Positions 1 through 21,355 of a stretch of DNA of 22,850 nucleotides are shown in pieces; within the stretch, counting starts at the first letter, position 1; each line of letters opens with the position of its first letter. The DNA is from Planctomycetales bacterium. Its GTDB lineage: Bacteria > Planctomycetota > Planctomycetia > Planctomycetales > Planctomycetaceae. The position numbers and the translations under genes were made by a program. The notes beneath the pieces are model-generated. The model did no database searches and was not told the origin of the DNA. It saw nothing but the letters and a program-made list of their open reading frames with translations. The DNA is taken from NCBI GenBank assembly GCA_016235885.1, contig JACRIH010000533.1, forward strand, positions 1 to 22,850, in the 5' to 3' direction.

Positions 1-46
1 CCTGCCTTTGAAGCAGTGAATGGAGGTTCGATTCCTTCTCCCCGAA
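1..46 (+). tRNA. tRNA-Gln (anticodon TTG), 5' end cut by the window edge
   Basis: Anticodon stem-loop ctgc-CTTTGAA-gcag with U33. T-arm GGAGG-TTCGATT-CCTTC. Acceptor 3' strand tctccccga. No encoded CCA. Confidence 0.7.
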
Positions 47-91
47 CTTGCGAACTTGCGACTGGCAGCGTGTGTCAAATGTCGCGAACAC

Positions 92-166
92 TCCGGGGCG
101 GTTGCTGCTGGTAGCAACGTCTGGCTCTGAACCAGAAGGTCGTTGGTTCGATTCCAACCCCCGGAA
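92..166 (+). tRNA. tRNA-Gln (anticodon CTG)
   Basis: Acceptor tccgggg/ccccgga is fully complementary. Anticodon arm tctgg-CTCTGAA-ccaga. T-arm GTTGG-TTCGATT-CCAAC. Length 75 nt. Confidence 0.8.
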
Positions 167-170
167 TTGA

Positions 171-243
171 AGGCAGAAGGATGAAATCGCTCGTGACCCC
201 AACCACTCGCCAAACGTTCATCCTTCATCCTTCTGCCTTTTTT
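171..243 (+). terminator. Inter-tRNA hairpin followed by a T5 run (terminator-like or processing element)
   Basis: 15-bp perfect inverted repeat aggcagaaggatgaa / ttcatccttctgcct (171-185 and 224-238) with a 38-nt loop. Followed by ttttt immediately before tRNA-Ser. Confidence 0.35.
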
Positions 244-329
244 GGAAGTCATCCGGCCGGATGAGGGACCTGTCCCGAAAACAGGTGGCGAGTTGAACTC
301 GCTTGTGGGTTCGAGTCCCACGGCTTCCG
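244..329 (+). tRNA. tRNA-Ser (anticodon CGA), class II with long variable arm
   Basis: Acceptor ggaagtc/ggcttcc. Anticodon arm cctgt-CCCGAAA-acagg. Variable-arm hairpin gcgag-ttgaa-ctcgc. T-arm GTGGG-TTCGAGT-CCCAC. Position 33 reads as C, which is atypical. Confidence 0.65.
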
Positions 330-519
330 CTGAACAAGGGCTCATGGTCCAACAGCAAGACGTCGGTCCTGCAAACCGGAGATTCGGGTGCAACTCACGG
401 TGGGTCCATTTTGAAGAGTTGAAGAGTGAAGGGCGAAGGGTGGAGGGCGAAAACAAAGTTGGGCAACCACGTCGTGGTACGCTTCGTGTTTTTCATTCTT
501 CTCACTTCACTCTTCATCC

Positions 520-591
520 GGTCCCGTGGTCCAGCGGCGACGACTTCTGGCCTACACCCAGACAACGATGGTTCGAGTCCATCCGGGATCA
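520..591 (+). tRNA. tRNA-Val (anticodon TAC)
   Basis: Acceptor ggtcccg/cgggatc (one G-U pair). Anticodon arm tctgg-CCTACAC-ccaga. T-arm GATGG-TTCGAGT-CCATC. 3-bp D-stem; C at position 33. Confidence 0.65.
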
Positions 592-599
592 TATTGATT

Positions 600-673
600 G
601 TCCTCGCGGAGCAGCTCGGAATGCTCGCCACCCTGTCACGGTGGAGACGTGGGTTCAAATCCCATCGAGGACG
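600..673 (+). tRNA. tRNA-Asp (anticodon GTC)
   Basis: Acceptor gtcctcg/cgaggac. D-stem gagc/gctc. Anticodon arm ccacc-CTGTCAC-ggtgg. T-arm GTGGG-TTCAAAT-CCCAT. Confidence 0.8.
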
Positions 674-696
674 TTTGGTGATGTGATATGTGATTC

Positions 697-778
697 GCGT
701 CGGCTGGGCATCGGCGTGCCCAAGTGGCCGTAACCCACCCGCCTTCGGGCAATGCAGGTTCGACTCCTGCTCGACGCA
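697..778 (+). tRNA. tRNA-Tyr (anticodon GTA), long variable arm
   Basis: Acceptor gcgtcgg/tcgacgc. D-stem gggc/gccc. Anticodon loop CCGTAAC. Variable arm gcc-ttcg-ggc. T-arm GCAGG-TTCGACT-CCTGC. Confidence 0.65.
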
Positions 779-785
779 TTGTTTC

Positions 786-858
786 GGCCCGTTCGTCTAT
801 TGGTACAGGACGCCAGCTTCTCACGCTGGCAAGGCGAGTTCGATTCTCGCACGGGTCA
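786..858 (+). tRNA. tRNA-Glu (anticodon CTC)
   Basis: Acceptor ggcccgt/acgggtc. D-arm gtctattggtacaggac resembles canonical tRNA-Glu. Anticodon arm ccagc-TTCTCAC-gctgg. T-arm GGCGAG-TTCGATT-CTCGC. Confidence 0.8.
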
Positions 859-938
859 TCTACGAGTATTTGTGTAGCCCCTGCCCTCGTGGCCGGCACA
901 AGGCCGGCGGCTACGACGGCCAGATTGATGGAAGATTC

Positions 939-1021
939 GACCGAGTGGTGAAATTGGTAGACACGCGACGCTCAGAACGTCGAGCCGTCAAGGCATGGGA
1001 GTTCGAGTCTCCCCTTGGTCA
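939..1021 (+). tRNA. tRNA-Leu (anticodon CAG), class II
   Basis: Acceptor gaccgag/cttggtc. D-arm tggtgaaattggtagacac is typical of tRNA-Leu. Anticodon arm cgacg-CTCAGAA-cgtcg. Variable-arm stem gcc/ggc. T-arm GGGAG-TTCGAGT-CTCCC. Confidence 0.85.
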
Positions 1022-1106
1022 TCGTTATCGACGCAGGTGAGCCAGTGCTCAGCCGAGGCTCATAACCTCAGCCCGCCGGGTGCGACCCCCGGACCTGCCA
1101 CTTGCC

Positions 1107-1176
1107 GTAGGTCAGGCTTTCCAGCCTGACTCGTTGGGCTGTCAACACACAGGTCAGGCTGGAAAGCCTGACCTAC
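1107..1176. repeat. Nested-palindrome (BIME-like) element between tRNA-Leu and tRNA-Ser
   Basis: 24-bp arms gtaggtcaggctttccagcctgac / gtcaggctggaaagcctgacctac are exact reverse complements with a 22-nt spacer. Each arm also contains its own 8-bp palindrome gtcaggct..agcctgac. Confidence 0.6.
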
Positions 1177-1190
1177 GACAAGATCCTCTC

Positions 1191-1276
1191 GGAAGGTAGC
1201 CGGATACGGTTGGCCGGGCCGCACTGCTAACGCGGCTCTCGTCACTGAGATGAGGGTTCGAATCCCTTGCCTTCCG
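1191..1276 (+). tRNA. tRNA-Ser (anticodon GCT), class II
   Basis: Acceptor ggaaggt/gccttcc (one G-U). D-stem ccgg/ccgg. Anticodon loop CTGCTAA. Variable-arm stem tctc/gaga. T-arm GAGGG-TTCGAAT-CCCTT. Confidence 0.75.
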
Positions 1277-1380
1277 CTGAATGTTTGTTTCGTGACATGG
1301 TGTTCGTGGTGTACCGGTGTGCATGCGACTCTGTGAAAGTCGAGGCGGTGGGTTCAACTCCCCTCGAACACCCTGCTGTG

Positions 1381-1490
1381 AATGATGAATTTCGAATGAC
1401 GAATGACGAACCGGCACCGATGCCGTTCGAGCATTCGACATTCGTCATTCTTTCGTCATTCGGATTTCGTCCTTCGTCATTCCCCCACAG
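1381..1490. repeat. Inverted blocks of tandem decamers GAATGACGAA ... TTCGTCATTC (copy 1)
   Basis: Left block gaatgacgaatgacgaa; right block ttcgtcattctttcgtcattc...ttcgtcattc, in opposed orientation. Lies immediately upstream of the HNH gene start. Confidence 0.7.
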
Positions 1491-1497
1491 GTGCATC

Positions 1498-2091
1498 ATG
1501 TCGGCGGTTCTTACTCGACCAACGCTCGTGCTCAACCGGAACTGGCAACCGGTGGGTGTGGCCTCGGTGTCGCGCTCGCTGATCCTGTTGTGGAACGACA
1601 ACGCGCGCGTGGTCGATCCGGCGGACTTCCGGCTGTACACGTGGAGCGATTGGTCGCGAATGATTCCGCTCGCGGATGAACCGTTCATCCAGGCGGTTCG
1701 GTCGCGGCTGCGGGTGCCGGAAGTGATTTCGCTGACGAACTTCGACCGCGTTCCGATGAACGGGGTGACGTTCAGCCGGCGGAACATTTATCGGCGTGAC
1801 CGTTACACGTGTCAGTACTGCGGTTCGCAGCCGGGGAGCGAAGAACTGACGATCGATCACGTCCTGCCGCGGGCGCAGGGGGGAACTTCGATGTGGGAGA
1901 ACTGTGTTCTCGCATGCGTCGCTTGCAACAAGCGCAAGGCCGACCGCACGCCCGAACAGGCGCACATGCCGCTGCACAAGCGGCCGGTTCGTCCCTCATG
2001 GAAGCCGCACTACGCCACGCGCGGAGTCCGGATCGACAGTTGGTCCCGCTTCCTCAGTGAAGCGTATTGGAATGTGGAACTGAATGCGTAG
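1498..2091 (+). CDS. HNH endonuclease (COG1403 / McrA-like), 197 aa
   Basis: Translation starts MSAVLTRPTLVLNRNWQPV, the N-terminal motif typical of this family. C-terminal motif CQYCGS...LTIDHVLPRAQGG...WENCVLACVACNKRK has the C-X2-C...DH...N...C-X2-C arrangement. AGGTG lies 7 nt upstream of the ATG. The long ORF in the track begins inside the repeat/tRNA region and was trimmed. Confidence 0.85.
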   Translation: MSAVLTRPTLVLNRNWQPVGVASVSRSLILLWNDNARVVDPADFRLYTWSDWSRMIPLADEPFIQAVRSRLRVPEVISLTNFDRVPMNGVTFSRRNIYRRDRYTCQYCGSQPGSEELTIDHVLPRAQGGTSMWENCVLACVACNKRKADRTPEQAHMPLHKRPVRPSWKPHYATRGVRIDSWSRFLSEAYWNVELNA

Positions 2092-2109
2092 CGGAAAGCT
2101 TTCAGCAAT

Positions 2110-2171
2110 CAGCGGTCAGCGATCAGCCAATCGGTTGAGGCTGACTGTTGAAAGCTGATCGCTGACCGCTG
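2110..2171 (+). terminator. Long hairpin downstream of the HNH gene
   Basis: 18-bp perfect inverted repeat cagcggtcagcgatcagc / gctgatcgctgaccgctg around a 26-nt loop. There is no clear U-tract, so function as a terminator is uncertain. Confidence 0.35.
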
Positions 2172-2175
2172 CCAC

Positions 2176-2245
2176 ACGAGTGTGCTCCTGGGAGAGCCAG
2201 TGGTCTCCAAAGCCGCTTCATGAGGTTCGAATCCTCACACTCGTG
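2176..2245 (+). other. Degenerate tRNA-like element (possible tRNA pseudogene or integration-site remnant)
   Basis: Perfect acceptor pairing acgagtg/cactcgt and canonical T-arm TGAGG-TTCGAAT-CCTCA. No canonical anticodon arm can be folded, and the element is only 70 nt long. Confidence 0.4.
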
Positions 2246-2248
2246 CTG

Positions 2249-2296
2249 TTGGAGTCCCGGCTTCAGCCGGTCTGCCGCCTGAAGGCGGGACTCCAA
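2249..2296 (+). other. Compact three-way-junction structure following the tRNA-like element
   Basis: Outer stem ttggagtc/gactccaa encloses two hairpins, ccggc-ttca-gccgg and ccgcc-tgaa-ggcgg. Confidence 0.35.
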
Positions 2297-2299
2297 CCT

Positions 2300-2373
2300 G
2301 CCGACGTGGCTCGACTGAGAAAGGCATCTGTCCCGTAAACAGACTCATGCTGGTGCGAATCCAGTCGTCGGCT
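2300..2373 (+). tRNA. tRNA-Thr-like (anticodon CGT), non-canonical D-arm
   Basis: Perfect acceptor gccgacg/cgtcggc. Anticodon arm tctgt-CCCGTAA-acaga. T-arm GCTGG-TGCGAAT-CCAGT (G at position 54). D-arm cannot be folded canonically and position 33 is C. Confidence 0.5.
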
Positions 2374-2394
2374 CTTGGTTCAAAGTTTGTTTTG

Positions 2395-2512
2395 GGAGTG
2401 CTCCGGCTTGACGGAGCTTTGGAATTTTTTGCGAAGCACTTTCGCCATCCTATAGAAACGGAAAGAAAGTCGCTCCGCGACAATTCCAAAGCTCCGTCAA
2501 GCCGGAGCACTC
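2395..2512. repeat. MITE-like palindromic element with 32-bp perfect terminal inverted repeats
   Basis: ggagtgctccggcttgacggagctttggaatt (2395-2426) is the exact reverse complement of 2481-2512. Interior carries hairpins gcgaa..ttcgc and GTCGCTCCGCGAC. This element generates the mirror-image ORFs 2347..2598 (+) and 2235..2672 (-). Confidence 0.75.
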
Positions 2513-2518
2513 CAAAGT

Positions 2519-2589
2519 TGCCCTGCGGGTGTGCCGGAAGCATGACAGACTTCGAATCTGTCGGACGAGGTTCGATTCCTCGGTGGGGT
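2519..2589 (+). tRNA. tRNA-Arg-like (anticodon TCG), weak acceptor stem
   Basis: Anticodon arm acaga-CTTCGAA-tctgt. T-arm CGAGG-TTCGATT-CCTCG. Acceptor gccctgc/gtggggt needs three G-U pairs and the D-arm is poor. Followed by tttttt. Confidence 0.45.
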
Positions 2590-2599
2590 GTTTTTTGAA

Positions 2600-2670
2600 C
2601 GTCCTCGGAGTGTGGTGGATGCATGCGACCGTGCGAAGGTCGAAGATCAGGTTCGACTCCTGACGGGGAC
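2600..2670 (+). tRNA. tRNA-Arg-like (anticodon reads GCG, unusual)
   Basis: Acceptor gtcctcg/cggggac. Anticodon arm cgacc-GTGCGAA-ggtcg. T-arm TCAGG-TTCGACT-CCTGA. D-arm has G-U pairs; anticodon GCG is not a standard bacterial Arg isoacceptor. Confidence 0.45.
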
Positions 2671-2719
2671 ATCCGTGTTCGATCCGTGTTTCATCCGTGG
2701 CAAAAAAACAATTCCTCCC

Positions 2720-2791
2720 GACGCTGTTGCCGGATGGTCCGGCCACTGTCTGCAAAGCAGTTCTTCGTGGGTTCGATTCCCACCGGCGTCT
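2720..2791 (+). tRNA. tRNA-Cys (anticodon GCA)
   Basis: Acceptor gacgctg/cggcgtc. D-stem gccg/cggc. Anticodon arm actgt-CTGCAAA-gcagt. T-arm GTGGG-TTCGATT-CCCAC. Confidence 0.8.
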
Positions 2792-2801
2792 TCAAGGAAA
2801 A

Positions 2802-2842
2802 GTAGGGTGGGACCAGCTCGCGAAGCGAGTGCAGGCCCACCA
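2802..2842. repeat. REP-like unit GTAGGGTGGGAC..GAAGCG..GGCCCACCA (single copy)
   Basis: Same motif order as the palindromic dimer at 8206-8290. Contains a ctcgc-gaa-gcgag hairpin. Confidence 0.55.
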
Positions 2843-2992
2843 TTGCCGAGATGATGATTCGTCATGACCAGACACGAGCAATTTCAAGCAAGGTTGACGC
2901 AGCCGGGCCAGCGGCGCATCAAGACCTGTCCTGTTCGCAGGCGGTTGTCCGAATGTGTTCCGCGAGTGGGTTCTAACGAAGGCTGTGTCGGC

Positions 2993-3065
2993 GAGTGGTT
3001 AGCTCAGTGGGTAGAGCACCAGACCGTGAATCTGGCTGTCACAGGTTCGACTCCTGTACCAACTG
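2993..3065 (+). tRNA. tRNA-His-like (anticodon GTG), imperfect acceptor stem
   Basis: Perfect D-arm agctcagtgggtagagc. Anticodon arm ccaga-CCGTGAA-tctgg. T-arm ACAGG-TTCGACT-CCTGT. The acceptor strands gagtggt/accaact have two adjacent mismatches. Confidence 0.5.
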
Positions 3066-3480
3066 CGGTGTGAAAAACCGCTCCAAAACGCGAAAGCGTT
3101 TACCAACCGGCCCGACGGTGGCGGGCGAATGATTGATCTGCGGATGCTTCGTTGATGTGCTCTCGTAATTGAGTGCTGCTCGACGTCGGCCGAAAGGCTG
3201 GCGGATGAGTCAGCGGATTGCGGGCCGTGCATCGCGAACATCGGCAACGTGACGGTTTGCTTTGCAGGGCGTGGATTCAGCCATCGCAAATTTCGGACAG
3301 ACGGTCGTGGATGCTGGTCGGACGCTCGCGTGACATTTGTCCGCGAGCGACAAAACCAGACGAAGCGACCGAACCTCCGCAGCTCGCGATGGCTCAAACG
3401 TCTCTCCGCATCCCGGCGCGGGATTAACAATCGTTTCGCCACCTGACGGCAATTCAACTTCCTCTCCACAGCGGGGGAGA

Positions 3481-3660
3481 GGACGGGAGTGGGGAATGAC
3501 GAATTCCGAATGACGAATGACGAATGAATGACAAAGCTCGAATGACGAACACGAGCCTTCACTTCGAGTTCACTGCCTGAATGCGTCACCGGCGAATTCG
3601 GCATTCGGCATTCGTCATTCGGAATTCATTCGTCATTCGTGCTTCCGCCATTCGTCATTC
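3481..3660. repeat. Inverted blocks of tandem decamers GAATGACGAA ... TTCGTCATTC (copy 2)
   Basis: Left block has four or more gaatgacgaa-like units; right block has cattcgtcattcg units in opposite orientation. Upstream of the SPFH gene. Creates the HSSFVI-repeat artefact in the minus-strand ORF 2999..3604. Confidence 0.7.
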
Positions 3661-3671
3661 CACACCGCCCC

Positions 3672-3707
3672 TCACCCCCGACCCCTCTCCCCCAAAGGGG
3701 AGAGGGG
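3672..3707. repeat. REP-like hairpin CCCTCACCCCCGACCCCTCTCCCCC-aaa-GGGGAGAGGGG (copy 1)
   Basis: Stem cccctctcccc / ggggagagggg. A near-identical copy lies at 19474-19509. Its 3' arm, ggagaggggagaag, sits directly before the SPFH ATG and acts as a Shine-Dalgarno sequence. Confidence 0.65.
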
Positions 3708-3712
3708 AGAAG

Positions 3713-4840
3713 ATGAAACGAAAGGACGCTCTCATGTACCCGATCAATGTCATCAAGGTCCGCGACTACGAAATGGGACTCCGGTTCCGAGACGGAGAAT
3801 TCCGCGGACTGTTCGCGCCGGGCCGGCACTGGCTGTTCGACCCGCTCCGCAAGGTGCGCGTGGCTGTCGTGTCGCAGCGCGATCCGTGGCTGGTTCACGA
3901 GAAGCTCGACCTGATCGTCAAGTCGGGTGCGCTGCGCGACCGCGCGGTCGTGCTCGATCTGAAGGATCATCAGCGGGCGCTGATCTGGATCGACGGTCGA
4001 TTCAGCCACGTGCTGCCGCCTGGTCTGTACGCGTACTGGAACTCGCTGCGCGACGTGTCGGTCGAAGTGATCGATGCGCGCGACGTTCGATTCCAGCACA
4101 AGGATCTGTCGGTGATCGCGCGGTCGCCGCTGGTGGATCGAGTTCTCGAATTCATCACGGTCGAAGCGGGTCACGCCGGCGTGCTGCTCCGGGATGGCGA
4201 CTTCGTGGAAACGCTGCCGCCAGGCCGGTACGCGTTTTGGAAGAACGTCGCGCAGAGCAAGCTGATCCCGGTGGATCAGCGCGAAGCGATGCTCGATGTG
4301 GCCGGTCAGGAAATCATGACGTCGGACAAGGTCACGCTGCGCCTCAACGCCATCGTGACGTTCCGTGTTGTCGATCCGCGCCGCGCCGTCAGCATTGTGG
4401 ATGACGCCCGTCAGGCACTGTACCGCGAGGCACAGCTCGCCCTGCGAGCCGTCATCGGCACGCGCGAACTCGACCTGTTCCTGACCGACAAGGACTCCGT
4501 CGCGAAGGACTTGGAAGAGATCGTCCGGCGTCGCGTGTCGGCGTTTGGTCTGGAAGTCGTTTCGATCGGTATCCGCGACGTGATCCTGCCGGGCGACATG
4601 AAGGATCTGATGAACAAGGTGACGGAAGCCAAGAAGGCAGCCGAAGCAAACCTGATCGCCCGTCGTGAGGAAACGGCGGCGATGCGCAGTCAGGCCAACA
4701 CGGCCAAGCTGCTGGAAGGCAACCCAATGCTAATGCGGCTGCGCGAACTGGAAGTTCTCGAAAAGGTCGCGGCATCGTCCAAGCTCAACGTCGTGCTGGG
4801 CGAAAAGGGGTTGGCCGATCGGATTGTCAACCTGTTGTGA
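3713..4840 (+). CDS. SPFH / band-7 (stomatin-prohibitin-like) domain protein with three N-terminal repeats, 375 aa
   Basis: C-terminal half (IVTFRVVDPRRAVSIVDDARQALYREAQLALRAVIGTRELD...) has the SPFH pattern. N-terminal half has three repeats of about 45 aa, each containing LPPGxYAxW. Start chosen at ATG 3713 after the GGAGAGGGGAG sequence; the longer track ORF begins inside the repeat array. Confidence 0.85.
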   Translation: MKRKDALMYPINVIKVRDYEMGLRFRDGEFRGLFAPGRHWLFDPLRKVRVAVVSQRDPWLVHEKLDLIVKSGALRDRAVVLDLKDHQRALIWIDGRFSHVLPPGLYAYWNSLRDVSVEVIDARDVRFQHKDLSVIARSPLVDRVLEFITVEAGHAGVLLRDGDFVETLPPGRYAFWKNVAQSKLIPVDQREAMLDVAGQEIMTSDKVTLRLNAIVTFRVVDPRRAVSIVDDARQALYREAQLALRAVIGTRELDLFLTDKDSVAKDLEEIVRRRVSAFGLEVVSIGIRDVILPGDMKDLMNKVTEAKKAAEANLIARREETAAMRSQANTAKLLEGNPMLMRLRELEVLEKVAASSKLNVVLGEKGLADRIVNLL

Positions 4841-5892: not shown

Positions 5893-7212
5893 ATGCCCGC
5901 ACTGTTTGCGGCGGACAGCAGCATCGCGAAGTTTCTTTCCGATCATATCGGTGAGACGTGGGGCTACGGCCTTACCGCGCTGATCCACGCCGTGCTCATC
6001 ATCCATTTTTTCGCCGTCGCGCCGCTGTTCTACATCTGGCTGGAACGGAAGGTGGCCGGGCGAATTCAGGATCGGCTGGGACCGACCCGCGTCGGCGGCA
6101 AGTTCGGCTGGCTGCAAACTTTGGCCGACGGCATCAAGCTGATTCAAAAGGAAGACCTCTGCCCGGGCGCGGCCGACAGGTTCCTGTTCCGGCTGTCTCC
6201 GTACTTGGTGTTCGTGGCCTCGTTCGGCGCGTTCCTGACGCTGCCGTGGTCCGACGGCTGGATCGCTCAGAATCTCGACATCGGTGTGTTTTTCATGCTG
6301 GCGGTGATGTCGCTGGAAGTCATCGGCGTGGTGTTCGCCGGGTATTCGAGCGGTTCGAAATGGGCGCTGTTCGGTGGCATGCGCGAAGCGGCTCAGGTCG
6401 TGAGCTACGAAATCCCGATGGCGATCTGTGCCCTCGTGCCCGTCATCGTCGCCGGGACGCTGAACATGGTGGACATCGGCCGGATGCAATCAGGTTGGTT
6501 CACCAATTGGTTCGTGTTGCACGACCCGTTTTGTTGTCTCGCGTTTTTCGTCTACTTCACCGTGGCCACGGCCAGCGTCAAGCGGGCACCGTTTGATCTG
6601 GCGGAAGCGGAAAGCGAACTCGTCGCCGGATTCCACACGGAATACAGCGGCATTCGCTGGTCGTACTTTTTCATGGCCGAATACGCCAGCATGTTTGCCG
6701 TGTCGGGAATCGCGACCGCGCTCTTCCTCGGCGGTTGGTACACGGGGATTGCTCCCATCGACGAAGGTTTGTTTGCCTCGATTCGCGAAGTGGGAGGGAG
6801 TCCGGCGGAAGGCGTGACGACTCTCGGCAGCTACGTCGTCAACCTCATCGGGATGACGATCTTCCTCGTCAAGGGAAGCGCTCTGGTGTTCTTCCAAATT
6901 TGGATCCGCTGGACACTCCCGCGGCTCCGCATCGATCAGGTGATGACCACCTGCCTGAAGTATTTGCTGCCGATCAGTTGCTTCCTGCTCGTCGGCGTCA
7001 GCGTGTGGCCGCTGTTGCTCAATTCCTGCATTGGGCGGACGACGCTGGTTCCCGGCGAAGCGGCCGCGCTGGGGAACAAGGTGCCGCGCGTCGCACCGAC
7101 AACTACCGGCCGAAAAACGGTGGCGATCTCACTCACAAACGACCACGGCGAAACGATTCCGGGAATCCTGTTTGATCCTGTGCCAATTACTGCTACTGCG
7201 GAACGAGAATAG
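5893..7212 (+). CDS. nuoH: NADH-quinone oxidoreductase subunit H (NuoH/ND1) with a C-terminal extension of about 60-100 aa
   Basis: WLERKVAGRIQDRLGPTRVGGKFGWLQTLADGIKLIQKEDL is the NuoH signature. The core ends near RIDQVMTTCLKYLLPISCFLLVGVSVWPLL and is followed by an extension without cysteine motifs. AGGTGA sits 6 nt before the ATG. Confidence 0.9.
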   Translation: MPALFAADSSIAKFLSDHIGETWGYGLTALIHAVLIIHFFAVAPLFYIWLERKVAGRIQDRLGPTRVGGKFGWLQTLADGIKLIQKEDLCPGAADRFLFRLSPYLVFVASFGAFLTLPWSDGWIAQNLDIGVFFMLAVMSLEVIGVVFAGYSSGSKWALFGGMREAAQVVSYEIPMAICALVPVIVAGTLNMVDIGRMQSGWFTNWFVLHDPFCCLAFFVYFTVATASVKRAPFDLAEAESELVAGFHTEYSGIRWSYFFMAEYASMFAVSGIATALFLGGWYTGIAPIDEGLFASIREVGGSPAEGVTTLGSYVVNLIGMTIFLVKGSALVFFQIWIRWTLPRLRIDQVMTTCLKYLLPISCFLLVGVSVWPLLLNSCIGRTTLVPGEAAALGNKVPRVAPTTTGRKTVAISLTNDHGETIPGILFDPVPITATAERE

Positions 7213-7259: not shown

Positions 7260-7853
7260 ATGAGCGGAGCCAACTTTCTCTTTTGGGTGTATGCACTCGC
7301 CGCCGGCGGTTCGGCGATCGCGGTCGTTCTCACTCAAAACGTCGTGCGCATGGCGTTCTGGTTGATCGTATCGCTCGGTTCGACAGCCGGACTGTTTTTT
7401 CTGCTCGGCGCGGACTTTGTTGGGGCGGCTCAGCTTTTGGTTTACGTAGGCGGAACGCTCGTGCTGTTGATTTTCGGCGTGATGCTCACGGCGAGCGGGC
7501 CGTTCATCAACATGAAAACGAACCCCGGCGAATTGGTCTTGGCTGGTGTTGTCGGTTGCGCGTTGCTCGGAGTGATCCTGAGCACCACCGGCGCGGTCGC
7601 GTGGGATGCACTTCCCAGCTCGCAGCACCAACAAAAGCTTGGATTCAATCCACCAGAAGACGGTTCCACGCTGCGTCCGCTCGGGATGAGTTTCATCGGT
7701 CTGCGGCCGGACAAAGATTTGGATCGCAAGGGGACGTCCGGTCAATTGAGTACCGGATACCTGTTGCCGTTTGAAATTGTTTCGGTTCACCTTCTGGTCG
7801 TGCTAGTTGGAGCGGCATACCTCGCCCGAGCCAAGAGGCGTCAGGGTTCTTGA
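7260..7853 (+). CDS. nuoJ: NADH-quinone oxidoreductase subunit J (NuoJ/ND6)
   Basis: Hydrophobic NuoJ-like sequence MSGANFLFWVYALAAGGSAIAVVLTQNVVRMAFWLIVSLG...LLVYVGGTLVLLIFGVML. Placed between nuoH and nuoK. Confidence 0.85.
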   Translation: MSGANFLFWVYALAAGGSAIAVVLTQNVVRMAFWLIVSLGSTAGLFFLLGADFVGAAQLLVYVGGTLVLLIFGVMLTASGPFINMKTNPGELVLAGVVGCALLGVILSTTGAVAWDALPSSQHQQKLGFNPPEDGSTLRPLGMSFIGLRPDKDLDRKGTSGQLSTGYLLPFEIVSVHLLVVLVGAAYLARAKRRQGS

Positions 7854-8297: not shown

Positions 8298-10658
8298 ATG
8301 ATGGACCCACAAACCTACCAATCCACCGGCGAAATGCTGCGAAACCTGCTGACGCTGGCATGGTTGCTACCGCTGGCCGGCTTCGTCCTCGAAGTTTTCG
8401 CTGGCTATTGGAGCCATCGGCTCAGCCGGGCGGCGGCGTATTCCGCCGTGTTCTGTATCGCGGCCGGATTCGTGTGTAGTTTCGCGGCGCTGATGTACTG
8501 GGGCCACCAGACACACTGGTCGGCCTTGGAATCACACGCATCGCCGGCGGACCATCACGACGTGCTGAAGTATTTTTCCGGGACGTATTACACGCTGGCC
8601 GAATTCGGCAAGCTGCGGATTGCCATCGACTACCACATCGACAGCCTGACGCTGGTGATGTTCACGATGGTGACGCTGATCGCGACGATGATTCATATTT
8701 TCGCCATCGGCTACATGTCGGACGAATTGACGGAGCATTACGAAGATCATCAGGTCCACACGGCCCACGGACACTTCCACCGGCCCGGGCGGTTCTACAT
8801 GTTCTTTGCGTACCTGTCCCTGTTCAGCTTCTCGATGCTGGGGCTGGTGCTGGCCGGAAATGTGTTCCAGGTGTTCGTGTTCTGGGAACTGGTCGGCGTT
8901 TGCAGCTATTTCCTGATCGGGTTCTACTTCGAACGCAAGTCGGCTTCGACGGCCGCGAACAAGGCGTTCATCATGAACCGCGTCGGGGATTTCGGGTTCC
9001 TCATCGGCCTGATGATCCTGTGGACGTGGTTCGGGACGTTCCAGTTCAACGAACGAGTCGAATCCGATGCCAACGGCAGAGATGTGGTCATGCCTGGGCT
9101 GTTCGACATGCTGCGAGACGATCACGGAAACGTCACAGTCCTGCCCGCCAACGATCACGATTCCTACGCGCGAGTGTTCCTCGCCGATCCGGGACATTCC
9201 GGCGCGCTGAAGCACGAGGGACACAAGGAAGGGAAGACGATGCCGTACTTCCTGCTGGTCGTGGCCGGGCTGGGAATCTTCGCGGGCTGTGTCGGCAAGA
9301 GCGCTCAGTTCCCGCTGCAAACGTGGTTGCCCGACGCGATGGAAGGCCCGACCCCCGTGTCGGCTCTGGTCCACTCGGCGACGATGGTGGCCGCCGGCGT
9401 GTATCTTGCCGGTCGGTTTTACCCGATGTTCCTCCCCGAAGTGCTGCTGACGATCGCGTACGTTGGCTGCATCACGTTGTTCATGGCGGCGACCATTGCG
9501 GTCGTCGCAACGGACATCAAGCGCGTGCTCGCCTATTCGACGATCAGCCAGCTCGGTTACATGATGCTCGGCATTGGCGTGGGAGGATGGACGGCGGGGC
9601 TGTTCCATCTCATCACGCACGCGTTCTTTAAGTCACTCATGTTCCTCTGCTCTGGCAGCGTGATTCATGGGTGCCATCACGAGCAGGAAATGCCCAAAAT
9701 GGGCGGCCTGATTCGCAAGATGCCGATTACCGCGTACACGATGCTCGTCGGAGTGATCGCGATTTGCGGACTGGCGATTCCCGGCATCTCGATCTTCGGC
9801 ATCAAGATTGCGTTCTCTGGCTACCACTCGAAGGACGCAATCATTGCCACGGCGATGACGTTCTCGCAGCTCAACGGTTCGCACTTCCTGTTGTTTGTCG
9901 TGCCACTCTTGGGCGCTGGTATCACCGCGTTCTACATGTTTCGGTTGTGGTTCTACACGTTCATCGGCCAACCGCGTGACCATCATGTGTACGACCACGC
10001 TCATGAATCTCCGGTGGTGATGTGGGCACCGCTGATTGTCCTCTCATTCTTTGCCGCGTTCGTCGCGTTCAAGGGAGAAGCCGGCAGCCTGTTCAAACTG
10101 CTGCTCGACACCGAACCGGCCAGCGTGGCACACGGGCTTCACGATGTAGGCTTGGCGGGAGATCTCAATTTCCCCAGCCACGTCGGTATCGAAGAGAACC
10201 ACAAGGCGGCCGGGTTGTACGCCCTGCTGGTGGCTGTCATGGGGACGACGCTCGCGTATCTGTTTTACGGAGCCCGCGTCCTGAATCCCGCCGAAGTGAA
10301 ACGCCAATTCGCGGGGGTCCACAACTTCCTCGTTGAAAAATGGCAGTTCGACATTCTGTACGATGCCGCCTTCGTCCGGCCGGTGCATGTCATCGCCAAA
10401 TGGTTTGTCGCGTTTGACCGCAACGTGCTGGATGGCTTCCTCCACGCGACGGCCCGCACCGCGGTCAGCATTGCGACGCTCGATCGGCGGTTCGACGAAA
10501 CGGTCGTCGATGGCCTCGTGAACTTGGTCGGGAATGTCACCTACGACGCGGGTCGGTCTCTGCGATACGTGCAGACCGGCCGGTTGCGGCAATACGTCAT
10601 GTTCATTGTGTTGGGTGTGGTGGGGATTTGGATTGTGATGCGGCTTTTCGCCGCTTAG
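8298..10658 (+). CDS. nuoL: NADH-quinone oxidoreductase subunit L (NuoL/ND5), unusually long (786 aa)
   Basis: Antiporter-like NuoL motifs (WLPDAMEGPTPVSALVHSATMVAAGVYL, HAFFKSLMFLCSGSVIHG). An inserted hydrophilic segment lies around residues 255-310. Confidence 0.9.
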   Translation: MMDPQTYQSTGEMLRNLLTLAWLLPLAGFVLEVFAGYWSHRLSRAAAYSAVFCIAAGFVCSFAALMYWGHQTHWSALESHASPADHHDVLKYFSGTYYTLAEFGKLRIAIDYHIDSLTLVMFTMVTLIATMIHIFAIGYMSDELTEHYEDHQVHTAHGHFHRPGRFYMFFAYLSLFSFSMLGLVLAGNVFQVFVFWELVGVCSYFLIGFYFERKSASTAANKAFIMNRVGDFGFLIGLMILWTWFGTFQFNERVESDANGRDVVMPGLFDMLRDDHGNVTVLPANDHDSYARVFLADPGHSGALKHEGHKEGKTMPYFLLVVAGLGIFAGCVGKSAQFPLQTWLPDAMEGPTPVSALVHSATMVAAGVYLAGRFYPMFLPEVLLTIAYVGCITLFMAATIAVVATDIKRVLAYSTISQLGYMMLGIGVGGWTAGLFHLITHAFFKSLMFLCSGSVIHGCHHEQEMPKMGGLIRKMPITAYTMLVGVIAICGLAIPGISIFGIKIAFSGYHSKDAIIATAMTFSQLNGSHFLLFVVPLLGAGITAFYMFRLWFYTFIGQPRDHHVYDHAHESPVVMWAPLIVLSFFAAFVAFKGEAGSLFKLLLDTEPASVAHGLHDVGLAGDLNFPSHVGIEENHKAAGLYALLVAVMGTTLAYLFYGARVLNPAEVKRQFAGVHNFLVEKWQFDILYDAAFVRPVHVIAKWFVAFDRNVLDGFLHATARTAVSIATLDRRFDETVVDGLVNLVGNVTYDAGRSLRYVQTGRLRQYVMFIVLGVVGIWIVMRLFAA

Positions 10659-21138: not shown

Positions 21139-21144
21139 ACTGTT

Positions 21145-21355
21145 GCCCCAACGGGGCGCAATTCGATAGCCCAGGGCGCAGCCCTGGGTTGGCAGTTGCA
21201 TCCATCACACGAGCCCCAATGGGGCGCAATATTGGGGATTCCCATATCCTCGACTGCGTCCTCACGCGAATTTCGCCCCGTTGGGGCTATCGCACCAATG
21301 ACCGCCGTTACCCAGGGCTGCGCCCTGGGCTATCGAATCGCGCCCCTTCGGGACT
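21145..21355. repeat. BIME-like cluster of GC-rich hairpins between the DUF1553 and DUF1501 genes
   Basis: 25-bp perfect inverted repeat gatagcccagggcgcagccctgggt (21165-21189) / acccagggctgcgccctgggctatc (21310-21334). Four small hairpins GCCCC-NNN-GGGGC lie in alternating orientation. Confidence 0.7.

Follow-up and report, generated by a model that had tools for sequence, protein, structure and literature searches.

Heptamer palindromes 5′ of the HNH and SPFH genes of a Planctomycetales bacterium: probably fast-turnover repeat DNA of operon spacers

What are the two blocks of short inverted repeats that lie immediately 5′ of an HNH endonuclease gene and an SPFH/Band 7 (slipin) gene in a Planctomycetales bacterium: binding sites that act on these genes, mobile elements, functional RNA hairpins or plain repeat DNA? 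We addressed this question in a 22,850-nt stretch of DNA (assembly GCA_016235885.1, contig JACRIH010000533.1, positions 1 to 22,850; hereafter the window), for which an earlier note had described tandem decamers in opposed blocks directly before the two genes. Both loci are imperfect palindromes built from tandem heptamers, with GAATGAC as the unit of the left arm and GTCATTC as that of the right arm. With a probability of roughly 60%, we take them to be fast-evolving, self-propagating or neutral repeat DNA that stems from slippage and copying and is tolerated in operon spacers.

Nineteen matches to the decamer GAATGACGAA with at most one mismatch were found in the window, compared with 2.35 expected (standard deviation 1.55) from 100 dinucleotide-preserving shuffles, none of which reached 19. 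The arrays are located where they had been claimed, 18 of the 19 matches being concentrated in two loci. At locus 1, plus-strand matches (1380-1410) are followed by minus-strand matches (1434-1482), and the same succession is seen at locus 2 (plus strand, 3494-3549; minus strand, 3597-3660). The remaining match, at 10347 within a nuo gene, we read as a chance match. The unit, however, is not a decamer: Tandem Repeats Finder (TRF) called period 7 at 1380-1410, 1432-1482, 3494-3527 and 3596-3660, with the heptamer GAATGAC as the repeat unit. Tandem decamers are only apparent, because overlapping 10-nt windows over 7-nt units share GAA. Similarly, the gap between the opposed blocks, given earlier as 40-60 nt, measures 23 nt at locus 1 and 47 nt at locus 2.

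Each locus consists of a GAATGAC-type left arm, a centre and a GTCATTC right arm, with arms of 31-64 nt of tandem heptamers. Locus 1 as a whole spans 1376-1491, as judged by RNA and DNA folds, and lies in the spacer between tRNA-His and HNH. On the plus strand, its left arm (1380-1410; TRF period 7, 4.4 copies) reads GAATGAT, GAATTTC, GAATGAC, GAATGAC and GAA. The centre (1411-1433), which recurs nowhere else, holds a small CCGGCA..TGCCG hairpin, and the right arm (1434-1482, plus strand, TRF) carries the complement units TTCGACATTC, GTCATTC, TTTC, GTCATTC, GGATTTC, GTCCTTC and GTCATTC. Locus 2, the whole of which spans 3489-3665 by DNA fold, lies 5′ of the SPFH gene. Its left arm (3494-3549, plus strand, TRF) comprises five GAATGAC units with the interruptions GAATTCC, GAAT and AAAGCTC, its centre (3550-3596) is not conserved, and its right arm (3597-3660, plus strand, TRF) is built from the units GGCATTC and GTCATTC. 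Taken over both loci, the arms also contain the variants GAATTTC, GAATTCC and GGCATTC as well as 4-nt partial units. The two centres are dissimilar to each other. The loci are related copies, because they share a 24-nt stretch, GAATT(T/C)CGAATGACGAATGACGAA, with a single difference.

The suggestion that these sequences could form cruciforms was borne out by DNA folding, which gave −29.8 kcal/mol for locus 1 (z = −5.7 relative to shuffles) and −50.8 kcal/mol for locus 2 (z = −7.75). Additional complementary bases close the stems (CTGTG/CACAG in locus 1, GTGGGG/CCACAC in locus 2). Folded as RNA, locus 1 reached −44.4 kcal/mol (z = −3.7 relative to shuffled controls), and locus 2 together with its flanking mini-hairpins −126.5 kcal/mol (z = −9.5). 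Locus 2 is bracketed by a 22-nt direct repeat (3461-3482 and 3684-3705, 77% identity), one copy of which is carried by each of these mini-hairpins (CCTCTCC..GGAGAGG at 3461-3482 on the left, CCCCTCTCCCC..GGGGAGAGGGG at 3682-3707 on the right). From the right arm to the start codon, the distance is 15 nt for HNH (ATG at 1498) and 52 nt for SPFH (ATG at 3713).

We compared the orthologous sites of related bacteria. In a close relative (L121), the SPFH protein is 98% identical and the DNA is colinear with the window, with ∼95% identity up to 3450 and again from ∼3682. At the site of locus 2, a different GC-rich palindrome of 74 nt is found instead of the GAATGAC element. This relative also has one hybrid copy of the 22-nt mini-hairpin (about 240-265 of L121), with a loop like that of the left copy and a flank like that of the right; the mini-hairpin pair of the window may, in this single case, represent a target duplication on insertion. 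In two further relatives (L122 and L123), whose SPFH proteins are 79% and 77% identical, the order of tRNA array, tRNA-His, HNH, tRNAs and SPFH is kept, no GAATGAC array lies near HNH or SPFH, and the tRNA-His-to-HNH spacers measure 23 and 29 nt, with an AAGGAG ribosome-binding site.

A search with the HNH protein yielded 80 metagenome loci, 20 of which have tRNA-His directly upstream. In 14 of these 20, the spacer is 23-58 nt long and has no hairpin; the other six are long. Over all tRNA-His-to-HNH spacers compared, the window included, 16 of 23 are 23-58 nt long without a hairpin, and seven are long and have inserts that differ. Among the latter, the insert is a CTTGAGG-type heptamer palindrome in L267 and L273, a perfect non-periodic palindrome in L303, and a GAATGAC-type palindrome in L292, in which HNH is just 65% identical. 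L292 is the exception: GAATGAC arrays are absent from L121, L122, L123 and 19 of the 20 metagenome spacers. Because the elements are absent or replaced at orthologous sites, the tRNA-His-to-HNH site is a hotspot of rapid turnover and not a conserved regulatory region. Absence from the orthologous loci of close relatives is also the outcome that the earlier note had named as indicating plain selfish repeats.

To see how far the family extends, one genome per species was scanned for GAATGACGAATGACGAA. The scan returned at least 120 stretches, the listed records being all metagenome bins and hence a sample rather than a census, and at least 78 of the stretches listed came from PVC taxa (Verrucomicrobiota, Planctomycetota and others, by record title). 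When a GAATGAC block followed by a GTCATTC block within 160 nt was counted as a pair, 48 of 129 genome arrays among the matches listed had a convergent partner, as did 22 of 108 arrays in viral contigs, all of the latter in the same order. Over these genome matches and the viral contigs, the order GAATGAC...GTCATTC outnumbered the reverse by 70:1. Control heptamers of the same composition had a convergent partner in only 1 of 22 and 0 of 52 arrays. In viral contigs, 73 GAATGAC stretches compared with 21 and 49 for two control heptamers, and the control stretches were nearly all single; the raw excess is thus just 1.5- to 3.5-fold, and the strong signal lies in pairing and dispersal. Altogether, the architecture was seen in about 70 places, in genomes of Verrucomicrobiota and Planctomycetota (among the matches listed) and in phage-like contigs, so the notion of a dispersed repeat family holds and the arrays are not unique to the window. 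Cyanobacterial matches, among those listed, were plain tandem arrays.

In these other places, the arms mix GAATGAC with GAAATCC, GAAACCC, GAAGCCC and GAAGCAC, all of which begin with GAA, and the centres of the palindromes are unrelated among family members. Similarity was slightly higher for pairs of elements from one genome than for pairs from different genomes (0.79 versus 0.75, p = 0.009). Several copies per genome or contig occur, as exemplified by L046, L120, L147 and L172. In each of the IMG/VR contigs L147, L133 and L172, GAATGAC arrays or palindromes are dispersed in three to five copies. Phage hallmark genes are present in two of these, a head-tail adaptor in L147 and a phage-type DNA methyltransferase in L133, and phage-like contigs may be a vehicle for spread between hosts. 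Within the searchable library of papers, GAATGACGAATGAC had no match; as far as could be found, the GAATGAC palindrome family is previously undescribed.

Where the elements lie relative to genes was examined with a simple, crude open reading frame (ORF) caller. Of 56 palindromes, 44 are flanked by co-directional, seven by convergent and five by divergent genes; adjacent gene pairs of these loci, which serve as the baseline, split 222/53/53. A facing stop codon lay at a median of 7 nt, a facing start codon at a median of 38 nt, and in 17 of 61 cases the distance to the stop codon was ≤0, that is, the ORF ended at the edge of the palindrome or inside it. Placement directly 5′ of start codons had been taken to hint at an effect on expression, but over the roughly 70 members (genomes among the matches listed plus viral contigs) the elements hug upstream stops, next to unrelated genes: mur/fts genes, genes for hypothetical proteins and phage genes. 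Their closeness to the HNH and SPFH start codons arises because the spacers are short. A Tepidisphaerales bin (L046), for instance, has three GAATGAC palindromes (1802-1940, 5989-6225 and 7407-7511) in consecutive intercistronic spacers of its dcw cluster (murF-mraY-ftsW, murC-murB). The murC ORF of this bin ends 45 nt into a palindrome, its stop codon being supplied by the repeat. No tRNA was found within 200 nt of any of the 70 GAATGAC palindromes of other genomes and viruses. A general link with tRNA genes, which applies to the heptamer palindromes of the HNH-anchored Planctomycete set described below, was rejected for these 70.

That set comprises 410 kb (the window, L122, L123 and the 80 HNH loci), which were picked by protein similarity and are therefore unbiased for repeats. 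Its commonest tandem-repeat period was 7, with 71 arrays, compared with 19 of period 6 and 24 of period 8. Moreover, 33 of the 71 period-7 arrays had an inverted partner within 170 nt, whereas the other periods between 4 and 12 each gave 0 or 1 such arrays. More than 20 different heptamer units were present, each genome tending toward one; favoured units are TAGGCGC in L285, CTTGAGG in L267, L273 and L303, and CGGAAGT and CGGATTG in L123. With the GAATGAC elements left out, 22 cases were informative, and in 20 of them the purine-rich arm was the 5′ arm (p = 1e-4), in agreement with the 70:1 order of the GAATGAC family. GAATGAC palindromes are one family of this wider class of period-7 palindromic repeats, which occupy short spacers of co-directional genes. 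Within tRNA arrays lay 26 of the 30 heptamer palindromes of the set; such arrays make up ∼30% of the DNA outside tRNAs and long ORFs, which corresponds, by a crude estimate, to a ∼15-fold higher palindrome density. Heptamer-packed tRNA arrays include L285 1078-3847, L123 4508-8584, L267 120-1606 and L122 6163-8147, and the units seen in the tRNA arrays of related Planctomycetes also include AGTAGGC and AAGTGAT.

The repeat unit also has consequences for gene calling. Whereas (GAATGAC)n gives TGA in all three frames, (GTCATTC)n is free of stops in every frame, and it is for this reason that ORF finders carry the SPFH ORF upstream across the right arm. The ORF starting at 3581 (419 amino acids) is an artefact, as compared with the 375 amino acids encoded from the ATG at 3713. 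The stop-free right arm explains this annotation artefact, and the called N-termini of downstream genes are inflated by it. In the public call, P0001, the 98% identical SPFH homologue of L121, has 430 amino acids; the palindrome upstream is a different one there. We also considered that units might be selected to show stop codons to entering ribosomes. This is true of GAATGAC and several other units but was not significant across families, eight of which have stops on entry only, three on exit only and 13 none, and the idea was rejected.

The setting of the two loci is a long tRNA-gene array that occupies bases 1-3066 (15 tRNAs by ARAGORN, to which Rfam adds 338-408 and a partial one at 1-46). 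Only 6 nt separate the end of the tRNA-His(GTG) gene (1300-1373, plus strand) from the left arm of locus 1, in keeping with the placement seen across the family. The HNH endonuclease gene (1498-2091, plus strand; PF01844, E = 9e-15) lies inside the array, directly 3′ of tRNA-His and locus 1, and the SPFH/Band 7 (slipin) gene (3713-4840, plus strand) is the downstream neighbour of locus 2; its closest homologues carry the names of Pirellulales or Thermoguttaceae slipins. Earlier work has linked HNH genes to long tRNA arrays (PMC8421152). The HNH domain is nearest to IscB/Cas9-type HNH models but falls far below their cut-offs, and a relative of the protein is encoded in >580 metagenome stretches. 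HNH directly after tRNA-His is also seen in L122, L123 and 20 of the 80 metagenome loci, and after tRNA-Arg in more distant relatives. Other genes of the window include DUF1501 and PSD1/DUF1553 genes and the nuo operon.

Short tRNA spacers in the array measure 7-22 nt, and almost all of the long ones are long because they contain a palindrome. Three more palindromes share the architecture of loci 1 and 2 but are based on other heptamers: one with units GAAGGCA/GAAGGAT ... TTCATCC at 169-240, between tRNA-Gln and tRNA-Ser; one with TGAAGAG/GAAGGGC-type units in a tRNA spacer at 411-520; and one with the unit TCAGCGA at 2098-2171, between HNH and tRNA-Trp (18 nt, 100% complementary). Non-periodic palindromes occupy 1101-1182, 2248-2297 and 2392-2516. 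The first consists of two 30-nt arms, 97% complementary, each of which is a GTAG-tagged mini-palindrome (GTAG GTCAGGCT..AGCCTGAC); it looks like a head-to-head dimer, of the REPIN type, of the GTAG family of repetitive extragenic palindromic (REP) sequences, a family that has been reported for PVC bacteria (PMC3733652). The palindrome at 2392-2516 has 52-nt arms, is 83% complementary and fills the spacer between tRNA-Thr and tRNA-Arg; it is not heptamer-based, nor is a direct 11-mer repeat, CATCCGTGTTC (2.7 copies, 2670-2699), 3′ of tRNA-Arg. Far from the array, Acido-Lenti-1 (RF01687) matches the minus strand at 21144-21188 and the plus strand at 21311-21355 (39.7 and 40.7 bits; gathering score 37). 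These two matches are inverted around the 5′ end of the DUF1501 gene, with CCCCAAYGGGGCG-like fragments in between, and the pair looks like another dispersed palindromic repeat rather than a small RNA gene.

Which function, if any, do the two palindromes suggest? The earlier note had offered operator or iteron arrays for a regulator, here one of HNH and SPFH, and short motifs in two opposed blocks 15 and 52 nt 5′ of two start codons do have that appearance. We nevertheless hold such a role to be very improbable: the arrays are missing or replaced 5′ of the orthologous HNH and SPFH genes, family members adjoin unrelated genes and are closer to stops than to starts, a location between divergent genes was found in just 5 of 56 cases, the number and order of units are unconstrained, and a scan of bases 1-4000 for sigma-70-like promoters found none. 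The regulator-site reading for these two genes is thereby removed. Intrinsic, possibly bidirectional, transcription terminators deserve as little credence, even though stable hairpins directly after gene ends, and a T run after the related palindrome at 169-240, are what one would look for. No U-tract lies 3′ of locus 1 or 2, a terminator scan performed at chance (4 found, 4.2 expected), and the elements are located within the dcw operon and the tRNA array, where termination would silence the genes downstream. It is possible, if doubtful, that the palindromes are functional RNA hairpins, punctuating polycistronic tRNA/mRNA precursors. They might be processed by RNase III or RNase E, block 3′ exonucleases or insulate the folding of one tRNA from that of the next, and any sequence would do provided that it folds into a hairpin. 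The very stable predicted stems, the position directly after the end of the upstream gene (median 7 nt) with room left for the next ribosome-binding site, the density in tRNA-array spacers, ∼15 times that of the remaining non-coding DNA in these loci, the polarity rule (20 of 22 cases) and the building of one architecture from many unit sequences all agree with such a role. However, selected RNA stems should fold better, and with more G-U pairs, on the sense strand, so selection on the RNA strand is unsupported: the sense strand was the better one in 14 and the antisense strand in 12 of 26 co-directional elements, with 74 and 70 G-U pairs, respectively (p = 0.95). Most orthologous tRNA-His-to-HNH spacers, moreover, are free of hairpins, none of the 70 GAATGAC palindromes elsewhere is near a tRNA, and an Rfam 15 covariance search, at the gathering score and at E up to 1, had no match at locus 1 or 2.

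A mobile origin has a similar mixture of evidence. The loci might be MITEs (miniature inverted-repeat transposable elements), as had also been proposed, or REP/REPIN-type elements, their heptamers serving as subterminal sites for a transposase encoded elsewhere. The parts of this proposal that stand are the dispersed copies, several per genome or contig, and the invariant polarity of the ends (70:1), to which the somewhat greater likeness of pairs within a genome, the presence in phage-like contigs as possible carriers between hosts, and the 22-nt direct repeat bracketing locus 2, single-copy in the close relative L121, can be added. What did not stand are the structural hallmarks. Among 72 elements, there was no recurrent target-site duplication and no defined terminus, the ends fading into degenerate units; the centres are unrelated, leaving no conserved core, arm length and unit order vary freely, and loci 1 and 2 lack the GTAG or CGTC tag of REP sequences. 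Furthermore, the same architecture occurs with more than 20 unrelated heptamers, which would call for many transposases or for one that is blind to sequence. We consider this origin quite unlikely.

This brings us back to fast-evolving, self-propagating or neutral repeat DNA as the preferred explanation. Because the elements are gained, lost and replaced quickly, they behave as such DNA and not as binding sites. Heptamer units would multiply via replication slippage, the two arms would stay alike by drawing on one pool of units, possibly with intrastrand template switching, and whole elements would be copied to new spacers and between genomes, surviving at sites where the damage is slight. Should the elements be transcribed along with the tRNA-HNH-tRNA-SPFH string, each of them would form a long hairpin just behind the upstream gene, and any effect on the expression of HNH or SPFH would then be a side effect. 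What the analysis shows is the anatomy, the family with its distribution, the turnover at orthologous sites, the period-7 specificity and the polarity; it is by inference that we take the elements to arise through slippage and copying, to be transcribed and to be nearly neutral.

Several points weigh against this explanation. The strict polarity, the specificity for period 7, the tight placement after stop codons and the ∼15-fold density in tRNA arrays (26 palindromes inside versus 4 outside, expressed per kb of non-coding DNA) hint at selection or a dedicated mechanism more than at pure neutrality, and the occurrence of an identical heptamer in several phyla and in phages is a further point of this kind. 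Native arms paired only marginally better with each other than with chimeric arms taken from other elements (p = 0.06). Since chimeric arms pair almost as well, the pairing comes mostly from one common unit, and we make no claim of arm-to-arm homogenisation beyond the sharing of units. In addition, the family counts cover only the matches listed, and the gene positions come from a crude ORF caller.

We think it unlikely, on the other hand, that palindromes of period 7 with the purine arm first are a feature actively generated or used by PVC bacteria and phages, built and spread by a machine or a 7-nt physical ruler, that punctuates polycistronic units. Candidate builders would be a replisome or repair step, a nuclease, a recombinase or an RNA-processing enzyme that reads stems. 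If this were true, the GAATGAC family would be the most widely travelled member, and tRNA arrays and the dcw operon would be among the units punctuated. Any mechanism must account for the period-7 specificity, the purine-arm-first polarity and the quick turnover at tRNA-array spacers. In practical terms, the elements could be used as markers for strain typing, and in Planctomycetes and Verrucomicrobia they probably give rise to assembly breaks and to RNA structure inside operons.

How do these elements relate to repeat systems that are already known? REP sequences and their composites, bacterial interspersed mosaic elements (BIMEs) and REPINs, owe their mobility to RAYT transposases and are stem-loops of 20-40 nt in which the stem is fixed and GTAG or CGTC serves as a tag (Di Nocera et al. 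2013, PMC3733652). Like the GAATGAC elements, they are extragenic palindromes, often inverted dimers that form larger hairpins, between co-directional genes, and they occur in PVC bacteria; unlike them, the GAATGAC elements have neither tag nor fixed length, and their arms are tandem heptamers. With MITEs, they share small size, lack of coding capacity, dispersal, inverted ends and constant end polarity, but they differ in having no target-site duplication (72 elements examined), sharp termini or conserved core.

Direct heptamer arrays offer a second comparison. Heptameric repeats are over-represented in many bacteria, with polymerase slippage suggested as their source, as relayed in PMC4692102. 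To the extent that they are described there, bacterial heptanucleotide simple sequence repeats, including the short tandemly repeated repetitive (STRR) heptamers of cyanobacteria, resemble our period-7 arrays in being enriched in intergenic DNA; they are mainly direct arrays, whereas nearly half of the period-7 arrays analysed here are palindromic and have a fixed polarity. TAACTGA heptamers, direct arrays in Beggiatoaceae, Cyanobacteria and Bacteroidetes of which 1 of 170 sets is inverted (MacGregor 2015, PMC4679880), likewise show one heptamer across distant phyla with no evident transfer mechanism, an intergenic location near start codons and a unit with stop codons. Again, the GAATGAC elements differ in being palindromic.

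The closest described system is that of the convergent GGGAATC arrays of Xanthomonas, to which we regard the GAATGAC elements as analogous. Each Xanthomonas genome has 183-186 arrays and 70-75 convergent pairs; the arrays are ∼90% intergenic, mostly between co-directional ORFs and in 7-8% of cases between divergent ones, have a mean distance of 28 nt to the ORF upstream and of 160 nt to the one downstream, and are not conserved in length and presence between two close species (Rehm et al. 2015, PMC4692102). Both systems consist of short, heterogeneous 7-nt tandem arrays; in Xanthomonas most have an inverted partner array nearby, and the orientation of such pairs is always convergent. Similarly, the GAATGAC elements are intergenic, co-directional, nearer to the upstream gene, rare between divergent genes and variable in relatives. 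In contrast to GGGAATC, GAATGAC has no G run and cannot form a G-quadruplex, the function proposed in Xanthomonas; a G-tract with this capacity is a trait of the Xanthomonas and Nostoc units and separates the unit family, not the architecture. The hosts also differ, being Planctomycetota, Verrucomicrobiota and phages, as do the coexistence of many units and, in this lineage, the concentration in a tRNA array. The GAATGAC family is a member of a known but barely studied kind, paired heptamer arrays, and extends this class from Xanthomonas to two more phyla and to phages.

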